A stretch of 32,000 nucleotides of DNA from Candidatus Electronema aureum (GTDB lineage Bacteria; Desulfobacterota; Desulfobulbia; Desulfobulbales; Desulfobulbaceae), in the NCBI GenBank assembly GCA_004284765.1, contig NQJD01000011.1:28455-60454 (forward strand). The letters are read 5' to 3'. The translations under genes and the position numbers were made by a program. Each line of letters starts with the position of its first letter. Within the stretch, counting starts at the first letter, position 1. Shown in pieces: positions 1,661-25,212 of this stretch. A model generated the notes under the pieces. That model was not told where the DNA came from. It made no database searches and saw only the letters and a list, made by a program, of their open reading frames with translations.

Positions 1661-3390
1661 TACTCGTCCGGCAGCGCGGGCAAAGGCAGACAGACTTCCA
1701 GCACGCAGCCTTGGCCGCCTGCTGGCTCTTGCAGCTTCACATTGCCGCTGTGTTGTTCGGCGATTTGTTTGACAATAGAGAGACCTAGGCCAGCGCAATT
1801 GGCCTTGGTTGAGAAGAAGGGGGTAAATATCACCTCGTGGATATTTTCGGCAATGCCAGGGCCTTGGTCAATCACCGCGATGCTGATCGCGTTCCGCCCG
1901 CCTTCTTGGTTTTCCCGCGCCCTGATCAACACCGGCCACGTGCTGGTCTGAACAGCGGCAGCACAGCTATTCTCCAGCAGATGCGTCAGTAGGATTTGCA
2001 CAAGCTGACGGTCTGCCCAGCAGTCGAGATGGTCGGGGATATCTAACTCCATCGCAGCGGCCAGCGGGCAAGATTCACGACCTTTAACTTGGCGAATAGT
2101 CTCCTCGGTTAGCCGCCGCAGGTCGAACCACTCTGGGGTAAGGGCAGAGGGCCGGGCAAACTGGAGGAAGTCGGTGATCGTCTTCTCCATCCGGGCTGAT
2201 TCTCTGAGGATGATCTCAGTCAGATGGCGGTTAGCCCGGCTGAGGGGATCAGGGCTGCTGTCCGCCGCATGGACATTCTTCAGGAGCTGGGCCGAGCCGG
2301 AGATGGCAGCGATTGGGTTGCGGAAGTCATGAGCAATGGCGGCACTTAGTTCGCCAATGGCCGCCATCTTCTCTGCCGCTCGCACTTGCCGCTCCATCTG
2401 CTCCAGCAGGCTAACATCCTGGACCGTGATCACCTTGCACTGCGTCTCACCCGGCTCATCCAAGGTTGGGTCAGGCGGCAGGTTGAGGTGAGCAAAGGTA
2501 TGCCGAATCCGCAATATGCTTCCATCTTTGCGCTGAAGATCAGCCACCTGTCTGCTCTGGTCGGTCTCAGTCAGCATGGCGGCTGGCAAAATGGAGGTGA
2601 AGGCCAGACCAACAAGATCAGCGGCAGCAAAGCCGGTGATCCGAGCAAAAGCTGGGTTGCAGGAGGTAATCCGGTTGCGCCCGTCAACCGTGACTATGCC
2701 GGTGCCGATGTCGTCAAAGACCTGCTTGTAGAGCTGGTTCAGGCGGTCAAACTGAACAAAGGTACGGGACAAGGCTTCCTCGGTGTTGCGGAGTCGCCCG
2801 GCAAGCAGATTACTGAGAAGGCCGATGGTGAAAAAGGTAATCCCATAGACCGAATACACGTTGGTTAAGCTGAGGTAATCGGTCGGAGGTACATATCTGG
2901 TCTGAGCATAGAATTGCGGAATGTAGCCCAGATATTCACAGGCAAGGATGGCTCCGTAGAGAATAGAAGACGCTGCCGCCGCGATTAGGCCACCAGTACG
3001 GCTCAGGCTCAGGCCGCCTGCAATCACCGGAAAGATGAACACCGGGGTAAAGATCGACTGGCTGCATCCAGTGCCGCCCACCAGCAGAGCAGCAAAGATC
3101 GCATCCGAGAGTAGCTGAATCAGTCCGAAACGAGTGAGGTGCCTAATCTTATTCTGAAGCAGCCCTGCCGAGCCAATAGAGTAAATGAAGACTACGGACA
3201 GGAACGCCATAGTCACCGCTGGTGGGGGCAGGATGATGTCACGGCCCTTGGTTTGCAGGACAACAGTGACCGCGATCAGCAGCGTAAAGAGCATCACCCG
3301 GATCATCAGCAGCCAGAGGATATGCAGGCGGAGCTGCTCGCCCGTGTTCCGCCTCGGAGTCAGCTCCTTGATGAATCTGCTTCTATCCAT
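1657..3390 (-). CDS. Sensor histidine kinase: multi-TM N-terminus, PAS, HisKA, HATPase
   Basis: 577 aa. It has about six hydrophobic N-terminal segments and a PAS-like region ([23 protein letters not shown]). H-box is AHDFRNP, N-box LLENS, G-boxes DQGPGI and GLGLSIV. Its start overlaps the stop of the upstream regulator by 1 nt. Confidence 0.9.
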
Positions 3391-4769
3391 TATTCCATTC
3401 CGTATTTTTTGGCCTTGTAGCGGAGCGAGCGGAAGCTGACCTTGAGCAGCTCGGCAGCCCGCATCTTAGAGCCTTCTGCTGCCTCAATCGCATGGAGAAT
3501 CATCTTCCGTTCCATTCTCGCCACGCTCTCTTCTAAGCCCCGGTCGAACAGCTCATCCTCGTCCCAAGCACCCACGAACAGCGGCTCCTTGACCGGCGGC
3601 GGGGCAGCGTTCTTCTCTTCCTTGCGGGAGGAAAGAATGAGACTTTCCGGCAGGATGATGTTAGACGACTCCAGAGCCACGCCTCGCTCAATGATGTTCT
3701 CCAACTCCCGTACATTACCAGGGAAGTTGTAGTTCATCAAGACTTCCATACCATAGGAGGAGAGAGCCTGCGCCTCCCGTCCCATCAGCTTGGCATATTT
3801 CTTGAGGAAATGCTCAACCAGCAGAGGCACGTCCCCCTTGCGCTCACGCAGTGGCGGCAGACGCACTGGCACCACGGCGAGGCGGTAGAAGAGATCTTCT
3901 CGGAACCGCTTCTCCATTACCTCTTCCTCCAGGTTGCGGTTGGTGGCAGCAACGATGCGGACATCCACCTGCTTCGTCTTGGCTGAACCAACCGGCATGA
4001 TCTGTCGCTCCTGAAGCACTCGCAGCAGCTTGGTCTGGATAGGTAGGGTGAGTTCGCCGATCTCGTCGAGAAAGACAGTGCCGGTGTGCGCTTGCTCAAA
4101 GAGGCCAACTTTATCAGCTATTGCGCCGGTAAAGGAGCCTTTGGCATGGCCGAACAGCTCGCTCTCTAGCAGGCTCTCTGGGATGGCACTACAGTTGATG
4201 GCGACAAAGGGATTGCTGGCGACCTTGGACAGATCGTGTATGGCCTTGGCGACCAGCTCCTTGCCGGTGCCTGACTCGCCAGTGATCAGGACACTGGCTG
4301 GAGTGGGCGCAACCCGCCGGAGCAGGTCGAATATCTTCAGCATCTCTGGGCTAGAGCCGATGATACCTGGTAGTCCGCCCGCCGGATGCTCCATGGCTGC
4401 ATCGGTCTTGCGCTTGGCTAAGGCAGCCCTGACCACCTTGCGCAGCTCATCAACATTGAACGGCTTGGCAAGATAGTCAAAGGCCCCGTTCTTCATGGCC
4501 TGTACAGCATCATCCGGCGAGGCAAAGGCCGTGACAATGATCACTGGCAGCTCAGGCTGGCGGCTCTTGAGTTCAGCCAGCAGCTCTAGGCCGCTCATGC
4601 CCGGCATCCGCACATCGGTGATAACTGCGTCGAATTCCTTCTGCTCGACAGCAGCTAAGGCAGCCTCAGCAGTGGGTGCGGCAGTGACGGCGTAGCCTTC
4701 CCGATAGAAGAGAATGCTGAGAAAGTCTCGCATACTCTGTTCGTCATCGACAATAAGAAGGTGTGGCAT
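3390..4769 (-). CDS. Sigma-54-dependent (NtrC-family) response regulator
   Basis: Receiver domain (MPHLLIVDDE...ITDVRMPGMSG), AAA+ Walker A GESGTGKE, sigma-54 contact motif GSFTGA, and a C-terminal Fis-type HTH. I chose the ATG at 4769-4767 (MPHLLIVDD) over the track start at 4919, whose 50 extra residues look non-coding. Confidence 0.92.
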   Translation of the reverse strand: MPHLLIVDDEQSMRDFLSILFYREGYAVTAAPTAEAALAAVEQKEFDAVITDVRMPGMSGLELLAELKSRQPELPVIIVTAFASPDDAVQAMKNGAFDYLAKPFNVDELRKVVRAALAKRKTDAAMEHPAGGLPGIIGSSPEMLKIFDLLRRVAPTPASVLITGESGTGKELVAKAIHDLSKVASNPFVAINCSAIPESLLESELFGHAKGSFTGAIADKVGLFEQAHTGTVFLDEIGELTLPIQTKLLRVLQERQIMPVGSAKTKQVDVRIVAATNRNLEEEVMEKRFREDLFYRLAVVPVRLPPLRERKGDVPLLVEHFLKKYAKLMGREAQALSSYGMEVLMNYNFPGNVRELENIIERGVALESSNIILPESLILSSRKEEKNAAPPPVKEPLFVGAWDEDELFDRGLEESVARMERKMILHAIEAAEGSKMRAAELLKVSFRSLRYKAKKYGME

Positions 4770-8744: not shown

Positions 8745-9683
8745 ATGAGCAGCAGTCCCTTGATCTCAGTCATTATCCCTGCCTATAACCATGAACGGTT
8801 CATCGGCCCGGCCATAGAATCTGTCCTTCAGCAGACGTGGAAGCATCTTGAGCTGATCGTGATTGATGACGGCTCCAAGGACAGCACCGGCAAAGTAGCC
8901 CAGAGCTACACCGATCCTCGGCTCTCGTATTATCATCAGGAGAATCAGGATGCCTACAACACCATCAACCGGGGCTTGAGTTTAGCAAAGGGAGAGTACA
9001 TTGCCATTCTTAATTCAGATGACATCTACACCACTGATCGCTTGGAAAAGCTCTTAGCCATCCAGCAGGAAAGCGGTGCTGCCTGCGTGTTCAGTGATGT
9101 AGTGCCGATCTCTGATGAGGGTGATGAGTTCACTGATCCGAATTTCGGTTGGAACCTGTGGCACAAGAAGAACCGAGCTTGGTATTTTGAATGCAAGGAC
9201 TTGCTTACTGCCTTTCTCAAGGGCAACTTCATGGTCACGACCTCAAACCTCTTTATGACCGCTGAGGCTGTGCGGACTGTAGGCACGTTCTGTTCCTTGC
9301 GCTATCTCCATGATTACGATTATATCTTCCGCATGATGCTGGCTTTTCCCGGTCGAGTACACTATGTCGATGACCAGAAGCTGCTCTCGTACCGTATCCA
9401 CAGCGGCAATACCTTGAGCGAGGCTGCTATCACCGGTCGCCTGCAAGACGTGGATGTGATCAGGAAATACATGCTGGCTGCGCTACCGGAGCACTGCCGA
9501 GGCATCGCTGCTGCTGGAACCGAGCGCTTACTTGCGCTGCGCGATGAGTTGGAGCAAGTGCGAGCAGAATTAGCTGGGCGGACGGAACCCAGTGTCCGCG
9601 AGCGGCTGAAGCTGCTGGTCGCCGCAGTGCGCTTTAAGCTGCGGAAGAAGATAGCCGGGAAAGGGAGGTATGCAAAAAATTAA
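8745..9683 (+). CDS. Family 2 glycosyltransferase
   Basis: GT2 signature ISVIIPAYNHERFI...VIDDGSKD...NSDD. The start at 8745 (MSSSPLISVIIP) is preferred; the in-frame track start at 8703 is possible. Confidence 0.85.
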   Translation: MSSSPLISVIIPAYNHERFIGPAIESVLQQTWKHLELIVIDDGSKDSTGKVAQSYTDPRLSYYHQENQDAYNTINRGLSLAKGEYIAILNSDDIYTTDRLEKLLAIQQESGAACVFSDVVPISDEGDEFTDPNFGWNLWHKKNRAWYFECKDLLTAFLKGNFMVTTSNLFMTAEAVRTVGTFCSLRYLHDYDYIFRMMLAFPGRVHYVDDQKLLSYRIHSGNTLSEAAITGRLQDVDVIRKYMLAALPEHCRGIAAAGTERLLALRDELEQVRAELAGRTEPSVRERLKLLVAAVRFKLRKKIAGKGRYAKN

Positions 9684-9696
9684 AGGAAGGGGTTAT

Positions 9697-11064
9697 TCAG
9701 ATTTTCTCAATCTCATATGGAAGTTGCTGCTGCACCTTGCGCAGCAAATCAACAAACGCCTCAGAATATTTATGAACAGCACTTTTTTCTGAGGCACCTG
9801 ATTTTACTTTTATGTGGTATTTATTATCACTTTCATTGATATCAATTCCTTTTTCTTTTTTAATTTGACGAACTAGTTCTTTAGCATGATGCCAAATTTC
9901 ATATCCAAGCTTCTTCGCAACAACAGTAAGTGTATACGGATAAGTGGCATTGAACATATCTGGATTATTCAATCCAGTGATTCCAAGCAATTTCGGAAGA
10001 ATGCTATCACTTGCAACGACCTGTTCAAGTGTTGCAAAGTCAACCTGTATTTCCATTTTCGGAATATCATGCCGAACTAATTCGTAGGTACGAGCCATTA
10101 GTGCTCGTAGAGTTTTAGGATTAACATTATCTAAACTTGAATTAGCCTCGAATGCCTTATATACCCACAAAAAATCTTTTGCGTACAATGCATTAACGCG
10201 CATAGAACTACCGTTACCAAGATTTAGAAGCAAATCATCAGAAGGTTTTGAGGAATGAGATAGTTTGTCATCGTATATTAAATAAAAAATATTTGATACA
10301 AGACTTCCTGGGCAGGCTAATATTTCATCAATGTCCTTCAATATGGCTAAAACGTTTGGGTCTTGTGCGCCGTATCCAATAATCAGGACTGGATGTTCTA
10401 AAAAATAAGTCAGCAATTTTGCGGAAAGATACTTCTTCTTGTTCGTCCAATTTTCGTAATCACTTTTCGTCAGCACAATTTCTTTATAGTCACTCACGCA
10501 CCCATGTATTTTAAAAATTTCTCCGACTGATATCCCCGGAGCGCGAATTATCTTCTGACCGACAATTCTTGTATATTTAGGATAAATTGTTTCGCAAAGC
10601 GTATCGTAATTTGTAGTAATAATTGAATGCGGATGAATCCGTTGAAGTTGCTCAATTTCTTTCTTTAGTTCTTGCTTAGTGATTGCAGAAAGATCAGGTG
10701 GTGTAATGTCACCTATATACTTTGCAGTAAAAAATTTAATAAATTCATCTGGATGAACACTTGGGGAGAAAAGGGCTGAATCGAAGTGTTCTTTTCCCTC
10801 GCTCCATGCCCATGCGTGAAAATCTGAAACTAATTGTTCTCCAACATCCAAAAGATTTGAATGCTTTTGATAAAGAAAAGCAATACTATCTTTAATTCTT
10901 GGGTTAAACTTTACAATTGCTTCGAGTAACTCAATCCATGAAGGCCCATTAATATATCGTCTTGAGAGTCCTGCTCCAGCAAAAATAATTGGCTGACATC
11001 CAAGTTCAGCCAAACAATTCGTAATTGCCTCGGTACGCTGTTTTATGTAATCTGAATATGGCAT
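9697..11064 (-). CDS. SIR2-like (SIR2_2 / defence-associated sirtuin type) protein with an unassigned C-terminal domain
   Basis: 455 aa. Motifs are IIFAGAGLSR (Rossmann), ITTNYD (catalytic Asn/Asp), KIHGC about 37 aa later (catalytic His) and LIIGYGAQDPN. These appear in the same order as in ThsA/DSR-type SIR2 domains. The gene is visibly much more AT-rich than its flanks. Confidence 0.8.
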   Translation of the reverse strand: MPYSDYIKQRTEAITNCLAELGCQPIIFAGAGLSRRYINGPSWIELLEAIVKFNPRIKDSIAFLYQKHSNLLDVGEQLVSDFHAWAWSEGKEHFDSALFSPSVHPDEFIKFFTAKYIGDITPPDLSAITKQELKKEIEQLQRIHPHSIITTNYDTLCETIYPKYTRIVGQKIIRAPGISVGEIFKIHGCVSDYKEIVLTKSDYENWTNKKKYLSAKLLTYFLEHPVLIIGYGAQDPNVLAILKDIDEILACPGSLVSNIFYLIYDDKLSHSSKPSDDLLLNLGNGSSMRVNALYAKDFLWVYKAFEANSSLDNVNPKTLRALMARTYELVRHDIPKMEIQVDFATLEQVVASDSILPKLLGITGLNNPDMFNATYPYTLTVVAKKLGYEIWHHAKELVRQIKKEKGIDINESDNKYHIKVKSGASEKSAVHKYSEAFVDLLRKVQQQLPYEIEKI

Positions 11065-11122
11065 TTTTTTTGAAGGGTAGAATAAGACCGTTAACCGCTG
11101 CTCAACAATTTATCGTAAATCT

Positions 11123-11138
11123 TCTGGCTATAGCCAGA
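11123..11138. promoter_or_regulatory. Perfect 16-bp palindrome upstream of the SIR2-like gene
   Basis: TCTGGCTATAGCCAGA is its own reverse complement and lies about 60-75 nt upstream of the SIR2-like start codon. An operator role is only inferred. Confidence 0.3.
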
Positions 11139-11163
11139 GCAACATAATTTGAACCGTCGTATC

Positions 11164-11236
11164 TGTCATTTCGAGCGGAGCGAGAAATCTCACGCCAAGG
11201 ACGAAGAGGAGATTCCTCGCTCCGCTCGGAATGACA
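11164..11236. repeat. Long imperfect inverted repeat (REP/MITE-like hairpin)
   Basis: Arms are TGTCATTTCGAGCGGAGCGAGAAATCTC (11164-11191) and GAGATTCCTCGCTCCGCTCGGAATGACA (11209-11236). They give 28 bp of pairing with 2 positions that would be G-U pairs in RNA, and a 17-nt loop. Confidence 0.65.
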
Positions 11237-11374
11237 TTCAAGTTCACTTTATACTGCTTCAGCTATATCAACAGGCGAACTGCATCTTTTTCAGGGTACT
11301 GCATAGGTAAAATATGTCAATAGGGAAATAATTTTATGGATAATTTCATACGGATGATATCTGTACCAAAGAAC

Positions 11375-17498: not shown

Positions 17499-17551
17499 AA
17501 TGTCAGTAAACTTCGTAACTCCTAAAAAAAGCACTATCCGTATTTTTCATC

Positions 17552-17580
17552 TTGACCCCACTGTCGCAGCGTTTTATATT
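17552..17580 (+). promoter_or_regulatory. Sigma-70-like promoter candidate for the comEA-like gene
   Basis: TTGACC (17552-17557), a 17-nt spacer, then TATATT (17575-17580), about 68 nt upstream of the ATG at 17648. Confidence 0.45.
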
Positions 17581-17647
17581 TTCCTTCCTTGTTAAGGATG
17601 CAGTTAAATTATTTTCAAACTGAAAACAATGAGGAATAATCACTATC

Positions 17648-18043
17648 ATGAAAAAAATATGTTTTGCAGTTCTCTTTGTTCTTTTTATGACGGTAACCGC
17701 TTATGCGGAAATCAATATTAACACTGCTTCTAAAGATGAACTGAACTCATTAGCCGGGATCGGGCCGATGAAAGCTGAAGCCATCGTGAAACATCGTCAA
17801 GAAAAAGGCCCGTTCAAAAGTATTGACGAGCTGAAGAACGTTTATGGTATTGGAGATAAACTTTTTGATCGAATCAAAAGTGACGTTACAGTCGGTAGTT
17901 TGGACGCAGTGGCAGAGGTAAAATCAACCGCTGAAGCTAATGCTACGACAGCGCAGGCTGAAGTGAAGGCACAGGAAAAAGCCGCACAAGCACCAGCTAC
18001 TGATAAGAAGGCAGAAAATTTACCTGTACAGCAGAAACAGTAA
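17648..18043 (+). CDS. comEA: ComEA-like secreted helix-hairpin-helix DNA-binding protein
   Basis: 131 aa. It has a signal peptide (MKKICFAVLFVLFMTVTAYA), NINTASKDEL, and two HhH motifs (LAGIGPMKAEAIV, VYGIGDKLFDRI). The C-terminal tail is low-complexity and Ala/Lys/Gln-rich. Confidence 0.85.
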   Translation: MKKICFAVLFVLFMTVTAYAEININTASKDELNSLAGIGPMKAEAIVKHRQEKGPFKSIDELKNVYGIGDKLFDRIKSDVTVGSLDAVAEVKSTAEANATTAQAEVKAQEKAAQAPATDKKAENLPVQQKQ

Positions 18044-18053
18044 ATTGCAAAGT

Positions 18054-18080
18054 AAGGGCAGAATTCACCTGCCCTTGCTT
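18054..18080 (+). terminator. Hairpin downstream of the comEA-like gene
   Basis: AAGGGCAG-aattcac-CTGCCCTT followed by GCTT. It is an 8-bp stem with a weak U-tract. Confidence 0.45.
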
Positions 18081-18149
18081 GAATATCATTCCGTACATAG
18101 CTCCTCTCTAAGCTAAGATCGGCAGTTCCTGCTGACCGACCATCTTTGT

Positions 18150-19232
18150 TTAAATCCACTTTTTTCTTTTGAAATAAACAAATAGGCCAAGGCTAATAGC
18201 CAGCATGAGAGACCAGATCATGCAATAGCCATAATGCCATTTCAACTCTGGCATATATTCAAAGTTCATCCCATACACGCCAACAATAAAAGTCAAGGGA
18301 ATGAAAATTGTAGATATAATGGTGAGCATTTTCATGATTTCATTCATGCGATTACTGATACTGGACAGATAGGTATCGTGCATTCCGCCAAGAATATCTC
18401 TACATGTTTCTGCCATATCAATAATTTGGATCGTATGGTCGTATAGATCACGCCAGAAAACTTTTGTTTCTGCCTGAAGCAGAATTGAATCACTTTTTGC
18501 AATGATGCCGACCTCTTCGCGAAATGGCCATATAGCTTTACGAAGATGCAAAATATCTCGTTTAAGTTGATGAATTTCTCTTATGTCTTCTGGTCTTGGT
18601 TCAGCAAGTATCTGTTCGTCGATATCTTCAATGCGATCACCAATACGTTCAACGGTCAAAAAATAATGATCAACCACAGCATCCATGAGAGAATAGGCGA
18701 GGTAGTCGGCTTTCAGTAGGCGAATGCGGCTTGTGGCGGCCCGAATGTGATTCCGAACGGTATCAAAAAGATCACCTTCATCCTCGATGAAGGAAATGAC
18801 ATAATTTTTTCCAAGAATCATACTAACATGTTCAATGACAAGATTGTTAGCTCCATCATAGGACATCATTTTGAGAACGATAAACAGATAATGTGAAAAT
18901 TCTTCAACTTTTGGCCTCTGCGTGGTGTTGACAATATCTTCCAGTGTCATCGGATGAAGATCAAAACATTTTCCCAACAATTCAATCTGATTAATATCAT
19001 GAATGCCGTTGACATTCATCCACGTTATTCCAGGTACTTTGGAAAAAACAAGACATTGATCCACCGTAATATCACGTAATTCATTCAGCTCAGTTTCACT
19101 ATAATGGATGATATCAATACTGGCCTTATCTTGTTTTTTTTCCCCGATAAAAAGCATTGTCCCCGGTGCCATGCCGGTTTTAATGCCGGCCCCGATAGGC
19201 TTTCTTTTCTTTTTCTTTATAGATCGTGACAT
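18150..19232 (-). CDS. corA: CorA-family magnesium/cobalt transporter
   Basis: 360 aa with the YGMNF (GMN) signature before the last of two C-terminal TM helices. The cytoplasmic N-terminal domain is of typical length. Confidence 0.93.
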   Translation of the reverse strand: MSRSIKKKKRKPIGAGIKTGMAPGTMLFIGEKKQDKASIDIIHYSETELNELRDITVDQCLVFSKVPGITWMNVNGIHDINQIELLGKCFDLHPMTLEDIVNTTQRPKVEEFSHYLFIVLKMMSYDGANNLVIEHVSMILGKNYVISFIEDEGDLFDTVRNHIRAATSRIRLLKADYLAYSLMDAVVDHYFLTVERIGDRIEDIDEQILAEPRPEDIREIHQLKRDILHLRKAIWPFREEVGIIAKSDSILLQAETKVFWRDLYDHTIQIIDMAETCRDILGGMHDTYLSSISNRMNEIMKMLTIISTIFIPLTFIVGVYGMNFEYMPELKWHYGYCMIWSLMLAISLGLFVYFKRKKWI

Positions 19233-19298: not shown

Positions 19299-21074
19299 TT
19301 ATTTCTCGTTAAAGCCCCAGTACGGATAATCGAGCTGATATGAGGCAACTAAGCCCGGACTGTGTTCGCGGCTGGCCACTAACCAAAGATCGTTACACCG
19401 CAGCTCGGCAGGTTCTCGGTTAAACGGGTCCCACTGCGGCAGCAGCACCATTGCATTGTCGGCAGAGTATTCGATATCACCGGAACCCTTGAAGGCACCA
19501 AGCTGCGGCTGTTGATCGTATTGGCCATCCTCGCGGCGAGTTAGCTCTGAAATCACCAAAAAAGAGGCATTGAACAAATCACGGAGTGACTCTAACTGTC
19601 GCAGCCAAGCATCAATGCCAGTACGCCGTTCAGCAAAATCTTTAAATGGCAGTTTATGTAAGCTGTCAATTACCACCATGATGCAGTCGGCGTTGGTCTG
19701 ATGACGGAGAAAATCGATGTGGCTGCGCATGAGTTCTGGACTTAATTTGCGGTCTGTGACCACCCAGAACCAAGGCAGAAGTCGCTGAAGTTCTACCTTA
19801 CCCGCCTGTAACCTCGCACGTTCCTCTTCGTTCAGTTCGCCAATTTTGATTTGCTCGACAGACAGCCTGCTCAGACGACAGAGAATGCGTTGATAAATCT
19901 TCTGTCTGCCGTTCTCAAAATCATAATAAATCACTGGAATTTTGCGCCGGGCCATCTCGCTGGCAATCTGGATGAAAAAGCAAGACTTACCCGCCTTAGG
20001 CAAGCCACCCATGATGTTGATTCCGTGCATTCCTCCCAATGCCGTATCTAATTTGGCAAAACCGGAGCGCATGGCCGCATGGCTTTCGCCGCTTTCTAAC
20101 TTGAGCTGCTCCTCAAATTGGAGAAATTCCCGTTCTGGCGAGCTGAAGGGCGAAAAGGACTTTGCTTCACGGATCAAGCGAAAGACCGCCTTCTGGAAAT
20201 CGTTGCCCAGCTCGGCGGCCATTTTAGTCAGGCAATACTGCTTAGGCGCGGAATCCGGCCAGCGAATCATTCTGACTTTGAAGCCTAATCGTCCGGCAAA
20301 ATCCCGCGCTGCGGTTTCTGATTCTGGGTTCTTGCTGACACAAACGAAGAGCGTTTTAATCCAAGCCAACCGCTCTGATTCCAGATTGACGAAATCCGCT
20401 GCTGATACCAAAGCGATACTGGGTAGGCCGAGCTGTTTCAAGGTGAGTAGGTTGTCCTCACCCTCAACGACGATCAAACTGCCATTTTCGCAGCGCATGA
20501 TCTCTTGGAGATTGAAAATACGAAAGCTGGGCGCGGAGAATTCCTCGTTACCGTGCCAAAATGTATCATCAGGCTGATAAGGATGGACACAGTGGGCGGC
20601 GTAGCAGTTACCGTCTTCTTGGAAATAGGGATAGACCAAGTAGCGGCCATTGAAGCCAATTCGCATTTCTTCCAGCACCGCCTTGGAAATACCCATTGCG
20701 GCAAAGCGAATGATTAAATCAGCGGTCAGCTTGTCGTGAAAACTGATAATTTCATTGTTGATGTTTTTAGTTGGATAATTGATCTTGGCGATGGCGTAGT
20801 CGCGATCTGGGTCGAAACCGGGCGCGAGACTCAGGCTGAGGCGAGACTGTCGAGCGAAATGGAGAGGAAAGCCGCCGGGTGTGCAGCGGTGCAAACACCG
20901 GTAATAGCCATAAAAATGACTTTCTGGGTTGGCGAATACCACCAGCAGCCGTTTCACGCCGCCCTTGCCTTGCTCGTGGCAGAAAGGACATTCCGCTATC
21001 AGGAAGCTATTTTTTAGCACTGCGCCGGGCAGATGCATGCTGTAGAAGGCAAGAATGGGATCAATGCGGCTCAT
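19299..21074 (-). CDS. Zinc-finger / Toprim-like / DnaB-C (SF4) helicase fusion, T7 gp4-like primase-helicase architecture
   Basis: 591 aa. The N-terminal Cys/His cluster is CPFCHEQG...YYRCLHRC. A central VVEGEDN resembles the Toprim glutamate motif, but I see no clear DxD. The C-terminal RecA-like core has Walker A GGLPKAGKS, Walker B VVIDSLHKL and FKGSGDIEYSADNAMVL, which parallels gp4 LRGSGALRQLSD. Confidence 0.72.
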   Translation of the reverse strand: MSRIDPILAFYSMHLPGAVLKNSFLIAECPFCHEQGKGGVKRLLVVFANPESHFYGYYRCLHRCTPGGFPLHFARQSRLSLSLAPGFDPDRDYAIAKINYPTKNINNEIISFHDKLTADLIIRFAAMGISKAVLEEMRIGFNGRYLVYPYFQEDGNCYAAHCVHPYQPDDTFWHGNEEFSAPSFRIFNLQEIMRCENGSLIVVEGEDNLLTLKQLGLPSIALVSAADFVNLESERLAWIKTLFVCVSKNPESETAARDFAGRLGFKVRMIRWPDSAPKQYCLTKMAAELGNDFQKAVFRLIREAKSFSPFSSPEREFLQFEEQLKLESGESHAAMRSGFAKLDTALGGMHGINIMGGLPKAGKSCFFIQIASEMARRKIPVIYYDFENGRQKIYQRILCRLSRLSVEQIKIGELNEEERARLQAGKVELQRLLPWFWVVTDRKLSPELMRSHIDFLRHQTNADCIMVVIDSLHKLPFKDFAERRTGIDAWLRQLESLRDLFNASFLVISELTRREDGQYDQQPQLGAFKGSGDIEYSADNAMVLLPQWDPFNREPAELRCNDLWLVASREHSPGLVASYQLDYPYWGFNEK

Positions 21075-21092: not shown

Positions 21093-21986
21093 TCAGGCTT
21101 TTCGGAGAAGGTGATCCAAGGCAGTCGCTAAATCTGGCTCGCGGAAGACATAGCCTGATGCAAGTAGCCTGCTTGGTGTTACCTTTGTGCTCGCGAACAG
21201 CAACTCGCGGCCCATCTCGCCCAAAAGCAGTTCAAGTAGGAAGCGGGGCGCGGGTAAAAGAGCCGGGCGACAAAGTACCTTGCTCAAGGCTTTGGTGAAT
21301 TCTTGATTCGTAGCTGGGCAAGGAAAAACCGCGTTGACCGGGCCGTGTAGTTCCTCATGCTGGAGGATATGTGTGATGATATGCGGGATTTCATCACGAC
21401 TAATCCAGCTCATCCACTGTTTGCCGCTGCCCATTACTCCGCCTAAACCCAGCTTGAAAGGTGGCAACATTTTTGCCAAGGCTCCGCCTTCTGTGCTGAG
21501 AACAATGCCAAAGCGGAGGCTAACTACTCGAATGCCCGCAGCTCTCGCAGGCTGCGCCGCTGCTTCCCACTCCTGAGCCACTTGGGCGAGAAAGCCTGTG
21601 CCGATACTGCTGGCTTCGGTCAGTTCTTCGTCGCCACGGTCGCCGTAGATGCCCACTGCCGAGGCCGAGATGATCACGTTAGGCTTATAATCAGTCTGGG
21701 CAAAAAACTGAGCGAGCAGACGGGTGCCGTCAACGCGGCTTTGCCGGATGCGCTCCTTGCGGGCCACAGTCCAGCGGTTATCCGCGATGTTTTCTCCAGC
21801 CAGATTAATGACTGCGTCAACCTGCTTGCTTGGCCCCAGCTCAATGATTTGCCGGTCTATATCCCAGAACGGCGCGGTGTGCGTAGTGTCACGGCGCAGG
21901 GCAAGCACCTGATGGCCTTGGCTGGATAGTGACTGCATCAACGCCCGGCCTACTAAGCCAGATGCGCCGGAGATGAGGATGTTCAT
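21093..21986 (-). CDS. yfcH: TIGR01777/YfcH-family SDR epimerase-like protein (with DUF1731-type C-terminus)
   Basis: 297 aa. It starts MNILISGASGLVGRAL and has GSGKQWMSWISRDE and a C-terminal ...LLASGYVFREPDL typical of YfcH. The GGAGA RBS sits in the 12-nt gap after the upstream gene's stop. Confidence 0.88.
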   Translation of the reverse strand: MNILISGASGLVGRALMQSLSSQGHQVLALRRDTTHTAPFWDIDRQIIELGPSKQVDAVINLAGENIADNRWTVARKERIRQSRVDGTRLLAQFFAQTDYKPNVIISASAVGIYGDRGDEELTEASSIGTGFLAQVAQEWEAAAQPARAAGIRVVSLRFGIVLSTEGGALAKMLPPFKLGLGGVMGSGKQWMSWISRDEIPHIITHILQHEELHGPVNAVFPCPATNQEFTKALSKVLCRPALLPAPRFLLELLLGEMGRELLFASTKVTPSRLLASGYVFREPDLATALDHLLRKA

Positions 21987-21998
21987 GTTGTCTCCAAT

Positions 21999-23144
21999 TC
22001 AGCAGCACTCGTCATCTTCTTTTATTTTTACATCGCTAACAGCTTCTAATGACCACGTACTACCTTTTCGTTCTAGTAAACCTATCGCTTCAATATTTTT
22101 TCCATATTTGTGTGCTTCAATTGCGAGAAGATATTGATTTACACCAAGTTCAATCTTTACATTAATATTTCCATATTCACCATGCTTATATCTTATAGTG
22201 ATTACCCTTTTCCCGTCATCTCTTGTCGGATTGTCGCTATGCAAATTTACAACAATTCCACAAATTATCGCTTGCTCAGGTGAAATTTCTTTTAATTTTT
22301 CAGCGGCATACTTCAGATATGAAATTTCATTCTCTCCAACGGATACAGAACTGAAATTCTGTATATCTTGACTTGGCATTAAACTGGTAGCCCATTGAAC
22401 AGATAATTTGAATGGAGATTCCAACCTTTCTCCCATTTCAACTATAGCTTCACACATCCTAGAATTAAAACCAGTCCTGTAGTTTTTAATAATAATATCA
22501 TGATTTTTATTTAATATAGCGTCACTCATGAAACAAACTCCTCTAATTATTCTTTCTATAACTCTTCTCTCGATAGGAGCTTGAAACATATCTTTTTGCT
22601 CAAATTCTAAATTACCATAAACAGGTGATTCGATAGAAAAACCAAAACTTCCACGAAACGTGTGGCCAAATCTAATCTTTTCGACAATATTGTCTCCGAC
22701 AGGTAACGCTCTTGCATAGTGAGGTAAGTTACTTTTTTCTGAGCAAGCACTGTATATAAAAAGATTGCTAATTCCGAAAATTTCTTTTCCCGCGATCTTT
22801 AGTGGGATGCTGGCTGGAAAATTATCTTTCTGGTTGATTGCAATCAAAAGTTTATCCCTATTTAATCCATTTATAGCCCTGAAAAGTTCATCTGGTTCTA
22901 TACTGTAGAAACTTGACAAAAATAAAAAGACATCGTAGATTCTTTTGAGAGAATCATCGAAATCGAGAGAAACAGGAAGAAATATTTTTAGAGGAACCCC
23001 AGAGTCATTTTCTGGCCCTTTAAGCAAAATTAGTTTGTTATTAGGTAGTGATGATTCTTTCCATCCCTTCAGTTTCATATATGACCTTATATCATATAAG
23101 GATATTTCTCGCGCAATATCTTGCTGGAAATTTTTATATGTCAT
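21999..23144 (-). CDS. Hypothetical 381 aa protein with no recognisable domain, in the AT-rich cassette
   Basis: A long uninterrupted ORF in very AT-rich DNA, where random ORFs of this length are unlikely. AGGAGA lies 7 nt upstream of the ATG. The start overlaps the stop of the upstream DUF4365-like ORF (ATGA). I see no catalytic or nucleotide-binding motif. Confidence 0.75.
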   Translation of the reverse strand: MTYKNFQQDIAREISLYDIRSYMKLKGWKESSLPNNKLILLKGPENDSGVPLKIFLPVSLDFDDSLKRIYDVFLFLSSFYSIEPDELFRAINGLNRDKLLIAINQKDNFPASIPLKIAGKEIFGISNLFIYSACSEKSNLPHYARALPVGDNIVEKIRFGHTFRGSFGFSIESPVYGNLEFEQKDMFQAPIERRVIERIIRGVCFMSDAILNKNHDIIIKNYRTGFNSRMCEAIVEMGERLESPFKLSVQWATSLMPSQDIQNFSSVSVGENEISYLKYAAEKLKEISPEQAIICGIVVNLHSDNPTRDDGKRVITIRYKHGEYGNINVKIELGVNQYLLAIEAHKYGKNIEAIGLLERKGSTWSLEAVSDVKIKEDDECC

Positions 23145-23655
23145 GATATTTCTCCTGAACTTATTCTTTCCATCAACGACTGAACTGCACTCGGAGTAAG
23201 AAGCTGACTTTTAGGAATGCGCACTCTTTTTGTAGAACTGTTCTCTGTTGGCTCTCCATTTACTGAATAATAGTAGCAGCACTTCTTGATAATCAATTGT
23301 TGTTCAGATACTTGTATCCATTCATTTTTATCTCTAGGGAGGCACATGACAACCAAGAGGCAAGGTATTGATGACTTTTCCTTGCGATATAGCAGTTTAT
23401 TGTAATACTCTGCATCTAAATCATAAGAAATAAAATTATTATCTTCAGTCCAGTTTATTGTTGCCTTGAGCTGACAATCAAAACTTGGCCCCATATCCAT
23501 CCGTTGTTTTTTAAAAATATCTACTCGACGAATAGAATAGTAACATCAACCCCGTAATCATGCTTTATGATATCATATGTTGCGCCAGCGCAAGATACTA
23601 CGGCAGTGACATAAGAAACACTCAGATTCTCTTCAATCGCTTGAGATGGAATCAT
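23141..23655 (-). pseudogene. DUF4365-type (PD-(D/E)xK restriction-endonuclease-like) gene, frame-disrupted
   Basis: Track ORF 23141..23500 encodes ...FDCQLKAT...IPCLLVVMCLPRDKNEWIQVSEQQLIIKKCCYY, the DUF4365 core and C-terminal pattern. I translated a 44-codon ORF by hand (23655..23521, different frame): MIPSQAIEENLSVSYVTAVVSCAGATYDIIKHDYGVDVTILFVE*. That matches the DUF4365 N-terminus. The frames join if one copy of the tandem AATAG/AATAG at 23531-23540 is removed. Confidence 0.7.
23531..23540. repeat. 5-bp tandem duplication (AATAG x2; CTATT x2 on the coding strand) at the frameshift point
   Basis: Read directly from the sequence. Deleting one unit gives the continuous reading ...HDYGVDVTIRRVDIFKKQRMDMGPSFDCQLKAT... 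Confidence 0.8.
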
Positions 23656-23734
23656 TATTAGCGCAATAGCTATCAGGAAATTTAAACTGTTGTTTTAGAT
23701 GCAGATGTAGCATCGTTAGTATAGAAAAATAACG

Positions 23735-23787
23735 GCTTTTACTTCCAGAAAATTATCACTTATAACAAATTTACTGGAAGTAAAAGC
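23735..23787 (-). terminator. Hairpin terminator candidate after the sugar dehydrogenase gene
   Basis: A perfect 14-bp stem, GCTTTTACTTCCAG (23735-23748) with CTGGAAGTAAAAGC (23774-23787), encloses a 25-nt loop. On the minus strand it is followed by CGTTATTTTTC. It begins 5 nt after the stop at 23792. Confidence 0.55.
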
Positions 23788-23791
23788 ACCC

Positions 23792-25069
23792 TCACAAACT
23801 TCCATCTGCCAAGCCCTTTGCCAGCAGATGCTTAACGTCATAGATCACTGCTTGGGGGCGGCATATTCGCGCCAGCTCTGCCCGGCCCAGATTGGTAAAC
23901 TCCCGGTGCGCCACTGCCAGCACTACCGCATCATACCGCTGCTCAGGAAGCTCGTTGATCATGGTTACGCCGTACAGCCGTTCTGCCTCGCCTGGCGCGG
24001 CCCACGGGTCATGAACCTCAATGGTTGCACCGTACGTAATCAGCTCGTCAATAATGTCTGTCACCCGCGTGTTACGCAAGTCTGGGCAGTTCTCCTTAAA
24101 GGTCAAACCAAGAATGAGAATCTTAGCATCTGCTACCTGGATACGCTTCCTCAGCATCAGCTTTACCACTTCTGAGGCAATATAGCGGCCCATGTTATCG
24201 TTCAGCCGCCGCCCAGCCAAGATTACCTCAGGATGGTAGCCAACCTGCTGCGCTTTATGGGTCAAATAGTAGGGGTCAACGCCAATGCAGTGGCCGCCAA
24301 CTAAGCCGGGCCGAAAGGGCAGAAAATTCCACTTGGTACCTGCGGCCTTGAGGACTTCCAACGTGTCGATGCCGAGGCGGTTGAAGATCAGAGCCAGCTC
24401 GTTGATCAAGGCGATGTTGACATCGCGCTGGGTGTTCTCGATCACCTTGGCCGCCTCAGCTACCTTGATACTGCTGGCCTTAAAGGTGCCTGCGGTAATG
24501 ATCAGGCCGTAGAGCTGATCGACAAATTCGGCAATCTCCGGCGTGGAGCCTGAAGTTACCTTGATAATGGTCGGCAGGCGGTGTTCATGGTCGCCTGGAT
24601 TAATGCGCTCCGGGCTGTAACCAGCAAAGAAGTCTTGGTTGAAGGTCAGGCCGGAAACCTGCTCTAAGATTGGGATGCAGATTTCCTCGGTCGCACCAGG
24701 ATAAACGGTGGATTCATAAATAACCACATCGCCCGGTTTCAACACCTGCCCGACTGTGCGTGAAGCACCTTCTAATGGGCTGAAATCAGGCCGTTTGCTG
24801 TTGTCAACCGGCGTGGGTACAGCGACGATGAAGACATTGCAGGAGCGCAGCTCATCGATGCTGCTGGTGAACTGAAGCTGCCGGGCTGCGGTGAGTTCTT
24901 CTGTGCTGACCTCAAGGGTTGTGTCGATGCCCTGGCCTAGCTCGGCGATGCGCTGGGCCTTGAGATCAAAGCCAGTACAAGGCAGTTTCTTGCTGAATTC
25001 TACCGCCAGTGGCAGGCCGACATAGCCGAGGCCGATGACAGCTAATCGCGTTGATGACAGATCGGGCAT
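23792..25069 (-). CDS. Nucleotide-sugar dehydrogenase, TviB/WbpO-like (UDP-GlcNAc/GalNAc 6-dehydrogenase family)
   Basis: [21 protein letters not shown]...GFD is close to the TviB/WbpO N-terminus, and the catalytic [11 protein letters not shown] is present. The start at 25069 (MPDLSS) with a GGAGAA RBS is preferred over the track start at 25117. Confidence 0.88.
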
Positions 25070-25212
25070 GGTGCTTCTCCGTTTGTGAACTGGTAGTGGC
25101 GAGAGGAAACGCAACAATACAACCTCGGATAAATCATGACACGTTCAGGAAAGAGATGGTGTAGCATGATCGCTGAAATCATGCCTGCATGATTCTTCCT
25201 GACAAGCAGCGC

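Follow-up and report, generated by a model that had tools for sequence, protein, structure and literature searches.

Identity of the islet genes

A short AT-rich islet in the genome of the cable bacterium Candidatus Electronema aureum raises the question of whether its two genes form a defence system, whether such a system is new, and whether this copy could still operate. The islet lies in a 32,000-nt stretch of DNA, referred to here as the window, and all coordinates are window positions (Table 1). It contains only two genes, both on the minus strand: a DUF4365 nuclease gene (gene A) and a gene encoding a 381 amino acid (aa) protein (gene B). The initial annotation of the window took the pair for a candidate undescribed conflict or defence system that could be matched to no named one. 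Comparison with defence-system profiles indicates that the pair is almost certainly PDC-M02, a cassette already catalogued in PADLOC, and that the Electronema copy is most likely a decaying, non-functional remnant in which gene B is intact. For this window the result is a modest one: a cable bacterium carries a defence candidate that is already in the catalogue and has probably been inactivated.

In order to establish the identity of the pair, both products were compared with the profiles of PADLOC-DB v2, and both matched PDC-M02 models at full length. The gene B product matched PDC-M02B with an expectation value (E) of 1.8e-112 (residues 6-376 on profile positions 5-378 of 379), and for divergent B proteins every family among the best 25 of the 35-39 matching PADLOC families per protein was PDC-M02B. 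Gene A, once its frameshift is repaired (169/170 aa), matched PDC-M02A with E 7.1e-62 over profile positions 1-165 of 170, while its unrepaired fragments matched the same model separately (C-terminal fragment, E 1.2e-44; N-terminal fragment, E 5.9e-11, positions 1-43). The arrangement is also that of PDC-M02, with the genes adjacent and tightly coupled on the same strand and A upstream of B, and differs from it in that PDC-M02 has both genes intact, whereas gene A of the Electronema copy is split by a frameshift. The stop codon of gene A (23141-23143) lies inside the start of gene B, forming an ATGA overlap at 23141-23144, and gene B has its own AGGAGA ribosome-binding site, an arrangement in which the two genes are translationally coupled. 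The product of gene B is 100% identical to CDV28_11150 of Ca. Electronema aureum.

The catalogued cassette derives from Payne et al. 2024 (bioRxiv 10.1101/2024.01.29.577857), who described 145 phage defence candidates (PDCs) as cassettes embedded in BREX, DISARM and restriction-modification (RM) loci. The PDCs were curated and added to PADLOC, and only a separate HEC set was tested. Table S8 of that study lists cassette CAS_00021 (FAM_01850>>FAM_00842) with a count of 894 and the entry 'Assign as candidate PDC-M02'. The pairing of A with B is catalogued but uncharacterised, and PDC-M02 is among the most abundant two-gene candidates without a published phenotype. The claim of novelty in the initial annotation was therefore superseded by the catalogue, while its description of two minus-strand genes with an ATGA overlap and a dedicated AGGAGA site was borne out by the sequence.

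A disrupted DUF4365 nuclease gene

Assignment of gene A to DUF4365, proposed in the initial annotation from motifs, was corroborated by Pfam PF14280 (gathering score 24.3 bits). The C-terminal fragment scored 58.9 bits (E 7.6e-16, profile positions 47-138), and the N-terminal fragment, at 13.6 bits (E 0.07, profile positions 1-36), fell below the gathering score. Removal of one copy of the duplicated CTATT restores a continuous open reading frame (ORF) of 169 aa, which reproduces the repaired protein previously described, and the repaired product aligns end to end with intact orthologues that are single ORFs of 169-173 aa. An alignment of eight diverse A-family members revealed four invariant residues, E9, D37, Q60 and K62. 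The positions of D37, Q60 and K62 resemble those of the active sites reported for SPARDA effectors, namely Q62/K64 in the DUF4365 domain of TmuRE (PMC10810196) and D41/Q60/K62 in the DREN domain of NbaSPARDA; in the Electronema copy these residues are divided between two ORFs by the frameshift. Judging by family and motif, an intact gene A would encode a free-standing DUF4365/DREN nuclease of approximately 170 aa with a PD-(D/E)xK fold and D...QxK residues.

The lesion is a five-base tandem duplication located between D37 and Q60/K62. E9 and D37 consequently fall within a 44 aa peptide and Q60/K62 within another ORF, and with its catalytic residues separated by the frameshift the nuclease cannot be made as one chain. 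One explanation for such a lesion is an error of assembly or consensus, in which case the Electronema copy would be intact and functional. The genome was derived from an enrichment culture or metagenome assembly, and gene A is intact in all relatives examined, both of which are compatible with an error; however, a 5-bp tandem duplication is atypical of homopolymer-type sequencing errors, and an independent Logan assembly of another run (SRR14559659, locus L012) matches the window with 0 mismatches along 7,145 nt, the duplication and the split gene calls included. An artefact is thus highly improbable, and since the second assembly carries the same lesion, the Electronema copy is probably dead. 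Programmed frameshifting was also considered and rejected: a -1/+2 shift would be confined to an overlap of about eight codons that has no slippery heptamer, and all examined relatives encode a single ORF. The simplest reading of the remnant is recent inactivation of a possibly costly effector. The broken nuclease gene was given too little weight in the initial annotation, as this copy, to judge from its reading frames, is unlikely to work.

Predicted structure of the 381 aa partner

The product of gene B yielded no match in Pfam or NCBIfam, and a Pfam search with 40 members of the B family at E up to 10 returned scattered chance matches only, with no DUF6575 among them. A search of PDB sequences with the B profile likewise gave no match. 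The AlphaFold2 model of B, built from a 40-sequence alignment, had a pLDDT (predicted local distance difference test) score of 89 and a predicted template modelling (pTM) score of 0.77. Its C-terminal part is predicted to contain strands at residues 292-303, 313-321 and 325-332, a helix at 335-346, and strands at 350-360 and 363-375, i.e. the order strand-strand-strand-helix-strand-strand that an OB fold shows, a five-stranded barrel whose helix lies between strands 3 and 4. Foldseek comparison of the full model with the PDB returned dozens of OB folds of SSB and RPA proteins (probability ~1.0, E 3e-3 to 5e-2, target TM-score ~0.5), which made up nearly all of the well-supported matches, and matches in BFVD included SSB, LEF-3 and DnaE_OBF.

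Residues 1-288 were modelled separately with similar quality (pLDDT 87, pTM 0.82), and Foldseek comparison of this model with the PDB (releases to April 2026) gave a best E of 0.075 with TM-scores of at most 0.2. Since the SSB/RPA matches are lost without residues 289-381, the OB similarity is localised to that segment. The C-terminus of B is accordingly modelled as an OB fold, and the approximately 290 N-terminal residues are predicted to adopt a fold with no solved relative detectable by Foldseek. The structural search that had been suggested for this protein was thus productive for its last ~90 residues, which have OB topology in the model, and returned no PDB match for residues 1-288. Likeness to SSB/RPA proteins is confined to this topology; B differs from them in having no sequence similarity and in carrying its OB domain appended to a 290-residue unmatched region, and nucleic-acid binding by B is only putative. 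The most conserved features of the N-terminal region are RFGHTFRGSFGF at residues 158-169 and PxERRVxERIxRG at 190-202, and a third conserved motif, YLxAIEAHK at 338-346, is situated in the helix of the predicted OB fold.

A further likeness involves DUF6575, which Vassallo et al. 2022 (PMC9519451) named among the domains of experimentally validated phage defence (PD) systems. The full-length B model matched a phage DUF6575 domain-containing protein, BFVD entry A0A8S5QA00 (Siphoviridae sp. ctoic9), in Foldseek with E 1.3e-6 over 380 columns, yet the TM-score was 0.29, identity was 10%, and none of the 40 B-family members matched Pfam DUF6575. This likeness is a lead rather than a relationship.

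Conservation of the pair and its genomic settings

In order to assess how widely B occurs and how strictly it is paired with A, relatives were counted among 50%-identity cluster representatives with a profile of 40 B homologues. The family comprised 5,769 relatives at E <= 1e-3 and 1,995 at E <= 1e-30, and the best 150 of the 5,769 were all approximately 260-415 aa. The description of the 381 aa protein as an orphan consequently holds with regard to Pfam and NCBIfam but not with regard to relatives. Eighty metagenome loci were examined for gene A; a PDC-M02A-type match ended 3-60 nt before B in 75, and the other five had less than 140 nt of upstream sequence, such that a DUF4365 gene lay directly upstream of B on the same strand in every assessable locus (75/75). 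This agrees with the expectation that a DUF4365 gene would be a conserved neighbour of the 381 aa homologues. Eleven other loci were examined as well. The same order, usually with a 4-nt overlap, was found in Electrothrix sp. YB6, E. gigas, Agrobacterium and two metagenome contigs, and in loci L010 and L011, where the DUF4365 gene had not been called, it was found upstream of B by tblastn. Leptospira phage LE1 also carries the pair (gp38 and gp37), as do plasmids of Entomospira and Pusillibacter, while B on a Pigmentibacter plasmid is preceded, again with a 4-nt overlap, by an unnamed ORF of 110 aa that is a candidate A only. By these comparisons, the A-then-B pairing is strictly conserved across phyla.

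Some loci deserve mention in their own right. In L010 (ENA contig_7389) the B gene and others, e.g. a topoisomerase IV/gyrase A gene, appear split by frameshifts, a pattern more suggestive of a noisy long-read assembly than of a biological feature. Only the last ~45 residues of a DUF4365 gene are detectable before B in L148 (476-610), despite 475 nt of upstream sequence, and this may be another degraded nuclease gene. Contig L176 has B-profile matches at ~158 and at 3131-4030 and may carry two copies of the module. Lastly, in 5 of 99 loci (L115:2550-5426 and four further ones from metagenomes) the next ORF downstream of the pair encodes ~959 aa, and it may belong to a larger RM- or BREX-like locus that encloses the pair.

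No third gene accompanies the pair consistently: among 626 neighbouring ORFs clustered from 99 loci, the largest cluster was represented in 5/99. A cognate methyltransferase was absent from the two-gene islet, and none was conserved among the 99 loci. Neighbours resembling ugd, yfcH, wecB or MraY were found in 0 of the 98 other loci, except on the Pusillibacter plasmid, from which two of the queries had been taken; the sugar-gene neighbourhood of the Electronema locus is therefore incidental, and a conserved link to polysaccharide loci, raised in the initial annotation as a finding that would speak against defence, did not emerge. Defence-type neighbours were observed in some settings. They comprised an MmeI-family RM enzyme; a group of three DUF262 proteins, an abortive infection (Abi) protein and HicA; and a group of HipA-like, PIN and Phd genes. 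YaaC, a resolvase and type IV secretion system genes were further neighbours. Many copies of PDC-M02 are solitary. As regards location in defence islands, some relatives adjoin RM, Abi or toxin-antitoxin genes, many copies are solitary, and the Electronema copy is alone. The wider interpretation as a conflict-system candidate was retained, with RM, type IV restriction, Abi and toxin-antitoxin genes among the neighbours of some copies, though for a pair that had already been catalogued.

These settings bear on three alternative roles. In the first, the pair would provide restriction-like direct immunity, with B as a DNA-binding specificity subunit that guides the nuclease to foreign (e.g. modified or single-stranded) DNA and spares the host. 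A PD-(D/E)xK-type nuclease fold in A and the modelled OB-fold domain in B are compatible with such a role, as are neighbours such as the MmeI enzyme and the DUF262 proteins, the latter having a GmrSD-like defence domain according to Payne et al. Neither a methyltransferase nor any other self-protection gene is conserved beside the pair, however, and the only characterised DUF4365 nucleases act non-specifically once activated, making direct restriction improbable.

A second alternative assigns the pair no role in immunity and regards it as a nuclease and a single-strand-binding-like protein with which mobile elements would recombine, replicate or integrate. A nuclease beside an OB-fold protein does resemble recombination modules, the pair occurs in phage LE1 and on plasmids, and PHROG families exist for both proteins. 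Yet viral collections yielded only one phage among 50,697 phage records and four relatives among 2.9 million viral contigs. Most copies are lone chromosomal inserts accompanied by neither integrase nor replication genes, and defence accounts better for the variable slots and for the embedding in RM/BREX loci. This role is considered very unlikely.

A toxin-antitoxin or addiction module was the third alternative, in which the DUF4365 nuclease would be the toxin, the 381 aa protein would neutralise it, and the main role would be stabilisation of mobile elements rather than phage sensing. Consistent with this, the pair is found on plasmids, in a region resembling an integrative and conjugative element and in a plasmid-prophage, it often adjoins classical toxin-antitoxin genes, and the tightness of its coupling points to a stoichiometric complex. 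That the nuclease is lost while the partner is kept, as in Electronema, is furthermore the order of decay that a toxin-antitoxin-like relationship would predict if the nuclease were toxic. Type II antitoxins, however, are small DNA-binding proteins usually encoded upstream, whereas B has some 380 aa, is encoded downstream of the putative toxin and has no helix-turn-helix, ribbon-helix-helix or other Pfam or known antitoxin domain. In addition, the SPARDA DREN domain alone is inactive and not constitutively toxic, and the cassette was picked up by its embedding in RM/BREX/DISARM loci. An addiction module is accordingly regarded as unlikely.

Proposed mechanism and comparison with known systems

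The reading favoured over these alternatives is that the islet holds a copy of PDC-M02, a defence system that operates by sensing and oligomerisation, and a rough probability of 0.6 is assigned to it as a blended figure. Taken separately, a defence role for PDC-M02 is slightly better supported than its opposite, while the specific mechanism is put forward tentatively, on analogy, and is less likely than not. In intact systems, B would act as a sensor scaffold that holds an otherwise inactive nuclease A. It would bind nucleic acid or a phage cue through its OB domain and a conserved basic helix, the simplest infection cue being a nucleic acid recognised by the OB domain. Upon infection, B would bring A subunits together into an active form, and the outcome would be indiscriminate degradation of DNA or nucleic acids and abortive infection, i.e. 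death or dormancy of the infected cell. That A and B bind, what the cue is, that A oligomerises and that infection ends abortively are all points that we infer by analogy.

The analogy is to SPARDA, with which PDC-M02 shares a DUF4365 nuclease domain, its putative catalytic D...QxK being near the same positions, and in which the effector requires a partner for activation. In NbaSPARDA the isolated DREN domain is monomeric and inactive, and Argonaute filaments force it into tetramers that act as a non-specific DNase/RNase. PDC-M02 differs in having no Argonaute or APAZ, and its A protein is a bare DUF4365 domain (profile positions 1-138 within 169 aa). The short Argonaute/APAZ component that characterises SPARDA was not recognised in B, which has no Pfam match and whose residues 1-288 have no PDB structural match; with no Argonaute and no structural match in this region, sensing based on a guide RNA is not expected. 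A version of the mechanism in which the OB domain recognises phage single-stranded DNA or replication intermediates, providing an Argonaute-independent, guide-free route to a SPARDA effector, is conceivable, with the odds against it. If validated, PDC-M02 would show control of a DREN nuclease without Argonaute.

A DUF4365 domain is also the presumed effector of Divona (bioRxiv 10.1101/2024.07.02.601686), an experimentally supported anti-phage gene. Divona is a single-protein fusion from an integron cassette, with an N-terminal DUF4365/Mrr-like domain and a crr6 domain, unlike the two genes and the OB-fold partner of PDC-M02. The present analysis adds testable detail to the catalogued candidate, namely a putative catalytic pattern like that of the SPARDA effector in the nuclease, an OB fold and a large unmatched region in the partner, and a composition of strictly two genes.

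Several observations weigh against the favoured reading. The literature search found no experimental test of PDC-M02, the name is absent from the main texts of the searchable literature, and the PDC candidates tested by others do not include it; other PDC candidates failed when tested (PMC12409345). The cassette stands alone among housekeeping genes in the window, outside any defence island. The OB-fold matches are individually weak, with a best E of 3e-3. Sequence searches of the PDB with A, both as a single sequence and as an eight-sequence profile, gave no match, SPARDA included, so that residues are equated with those of DREN through common Pfam membership and the position of motifs, not by direct alignment. 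Casting B as the sensor and oligomerisation as the means of activation is argument by analogy, and oligomerisation-dependent activity of a DUF4365 nuclease is known only for NbaSPARDA.

Foreign origin of the islet and content of its slot

The islet is distinct in composition from its surroundings. In 300-nt windows the GC content falls from 0.53-0.59 to 0.33-0.37 between ~22000 and ~23800, and the segment that is not syntenic with the closest available genome, that of the sister species Ca. Electronema nielsenii F5 (locus L013), is 1,802 nt long with 34.6% GC, compared with 52.8% for the rest of the window. Relative to other 1.8-kb windows this is a deviation of z = -3.7. GC content at third codon positions (GC3) was 0.26-0.36 for the genes of the cassette, against 0.57-0.68 for those on its flanks. 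The abrupt drop between the hairpin behind the dehydrogenase gene and the ribosome-binding site of the yfcH-like gene, which had been estimated by eye, was thereby confirmed by the windowed GC and GC3 values, and the notion of a compositionally foreign block is in agreement with both the low GC/GC3 and the different content of the same slot in E. nielsenii.

Table 1. Features of the islet and its flanks, in window coordinates.
Feature	Position	Strand	Evidence or remark
Low-GC islet	21988..23789	none	Not shared with Ca. Electronema nielsenii; BLASTN alignment to L013 breaks at 23790 and resumes at 21987
PDC-M02A gene (DUF4365/DREN-type PD-(D/E)xK nuclease), disrupted	23141..23655	minus	PF14280; PADLOC PDC-M02A
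Gene A N-terminal fragment, 44 aa	23521..23655	minus	ORF call; TAG at 23521-23523; has E9 and D37
Gene A C-terminal fragment, 119 aa	23141..23500	minus	ORF call; other frame; has Q60 and K62 of QxK
Five-base tandem duplication CTATT/CTATT, frameshifting lesion	23531..23540	minus	Sequence
AGGAGA ribosome-binding site for gene B	23151..23156	minus	Read from sequence; within end of gene A
PDC-M02B gene, 381 aa, intact; putative sensor/regulator partner	21999..23144	minus	PADLOC PDC-M02B
Predicted C-terminal OB-fold domain of B, ~residues 289-381	22002..22280	minus	AlphaFold2 and Foldseek
AT-rich hairpin with T-run, possible terminator	23735..23787	minus	Inside the non-syntenic segment, directly 3' of the dehydrogenase gene
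UDP-glucose/GDP-mannose dehydrogenase family gene	23792..25117	minus	Flank; Pfam
Epimerase/DUF1731 (yfcH-like) gene	21093..21986	minus	Flank; Pfam

E. nielsenii is collinear with the window on both sides of the islet, with 96% DNA identity below 21987 and 83-88% above 23790 (BLASTN), and its yfcH-like protein is 95% identical. The islet begins immediately behind the UDP-sugar dehydrogenase stop codon and ends 1 nt short of the yfcH-like start codon, such that each break point falls at the edge of a core gene, one at a stop codon and the other at the start codon of the gene that follows. In E. nielsenii the same slot (L013:3862-4531) is occupied by 670 bp with a 204 aa ORF that has no Pfam match and that matches a PADLOC CRISPR-associated PD_DExK model with E 8.7e-49. 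The islet is a horizontally acquired two-gene module, foreign to this genome. An integration signature was sought at its ends and discarded, as the search yielded neither flanking direct repeats nor a tRNA, an integrase or an Rfam element.

The space separating the dehydrogenase gene from the yfcH-like gene resembles a small variable slot, with cargo exchanged via recombination in the flanking genes. The presence of nuclease-type accessory cargo in both species suggests a tiny hotspot at which nuclease-type genes are swapped, and the broken copy together with the slot comparison illustrates rapid turnover of nuclease cargo at such a chromosomal site. The broader proposition that the Electronema slot is a nuclease-swapping hotspot and that PDC-M02 is a real and widespread abortive-infection system, in which an OB sensor of new fold assembles a free-standing DREN nuclease, is doubtful as a whole.

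Other features of the window

The hairpin at the dehydrogenase end of the islet, described in the initial annotation, was recovered by an inverted repeat search with 20-nt arms (23735-23754 and 23768-23787) that are 95% complementary and separated by a 13-nt loop. It was not called by the terminator scan because its stem is AT-rich. At the other end, a GGAGA site precedes the ATG of the yfcH-like gene. Farther neighbours include a QueD-like (PTPS) gene, a radical-SAM gene, RelA/SpoT, an RNB-family ribonuclease, CorA, a DnaB_C-like protein and other housekeeping genes.

At 9600-11300 lies a second islet of low GC (0.37-0.40), flanked by GT2 glycosyltransferase and NrfD/Fe-S/molybdopterin oxidoreductase genes. 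Its minus-strand ORF at 9697..11064 encodes a 455 aa SIR2_2-domain protein that matches the PADLOC candidate PDC-S25 (E 3.5e-72), with weaker matches to the SIR2 proteins of ThsA, LmuA and Dsr1. On the strength of these profile matches, the gene would be a second solitary defence candidate within the same 32 kb.

A third stretch of lower GC (~0.39), at 17500-19200, contains a helix-hairpin-helix (ComEA-like) gene and CorA. The part that aligns with E. nielsenii, from 18005 up (CorA), is 96% identical, and since it is conserved there the CorA part is not a recent insertion; the helix-hairpin-helix gene (17648-18043) falls mostly outside the aligned range. Finally, the minus-strand gene at 19299-21074 encodes a 591 aa protein with a cysteine-rich N-terminus, a DnaB_C/AAA_25 C-terminal half and a weak match to the PADLOC 'RTasDnaG-like' model (E 8e-4). 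The gene has 96% DNA identity in E. nielsenii and, being conserved there, is a core gene outside the islet.

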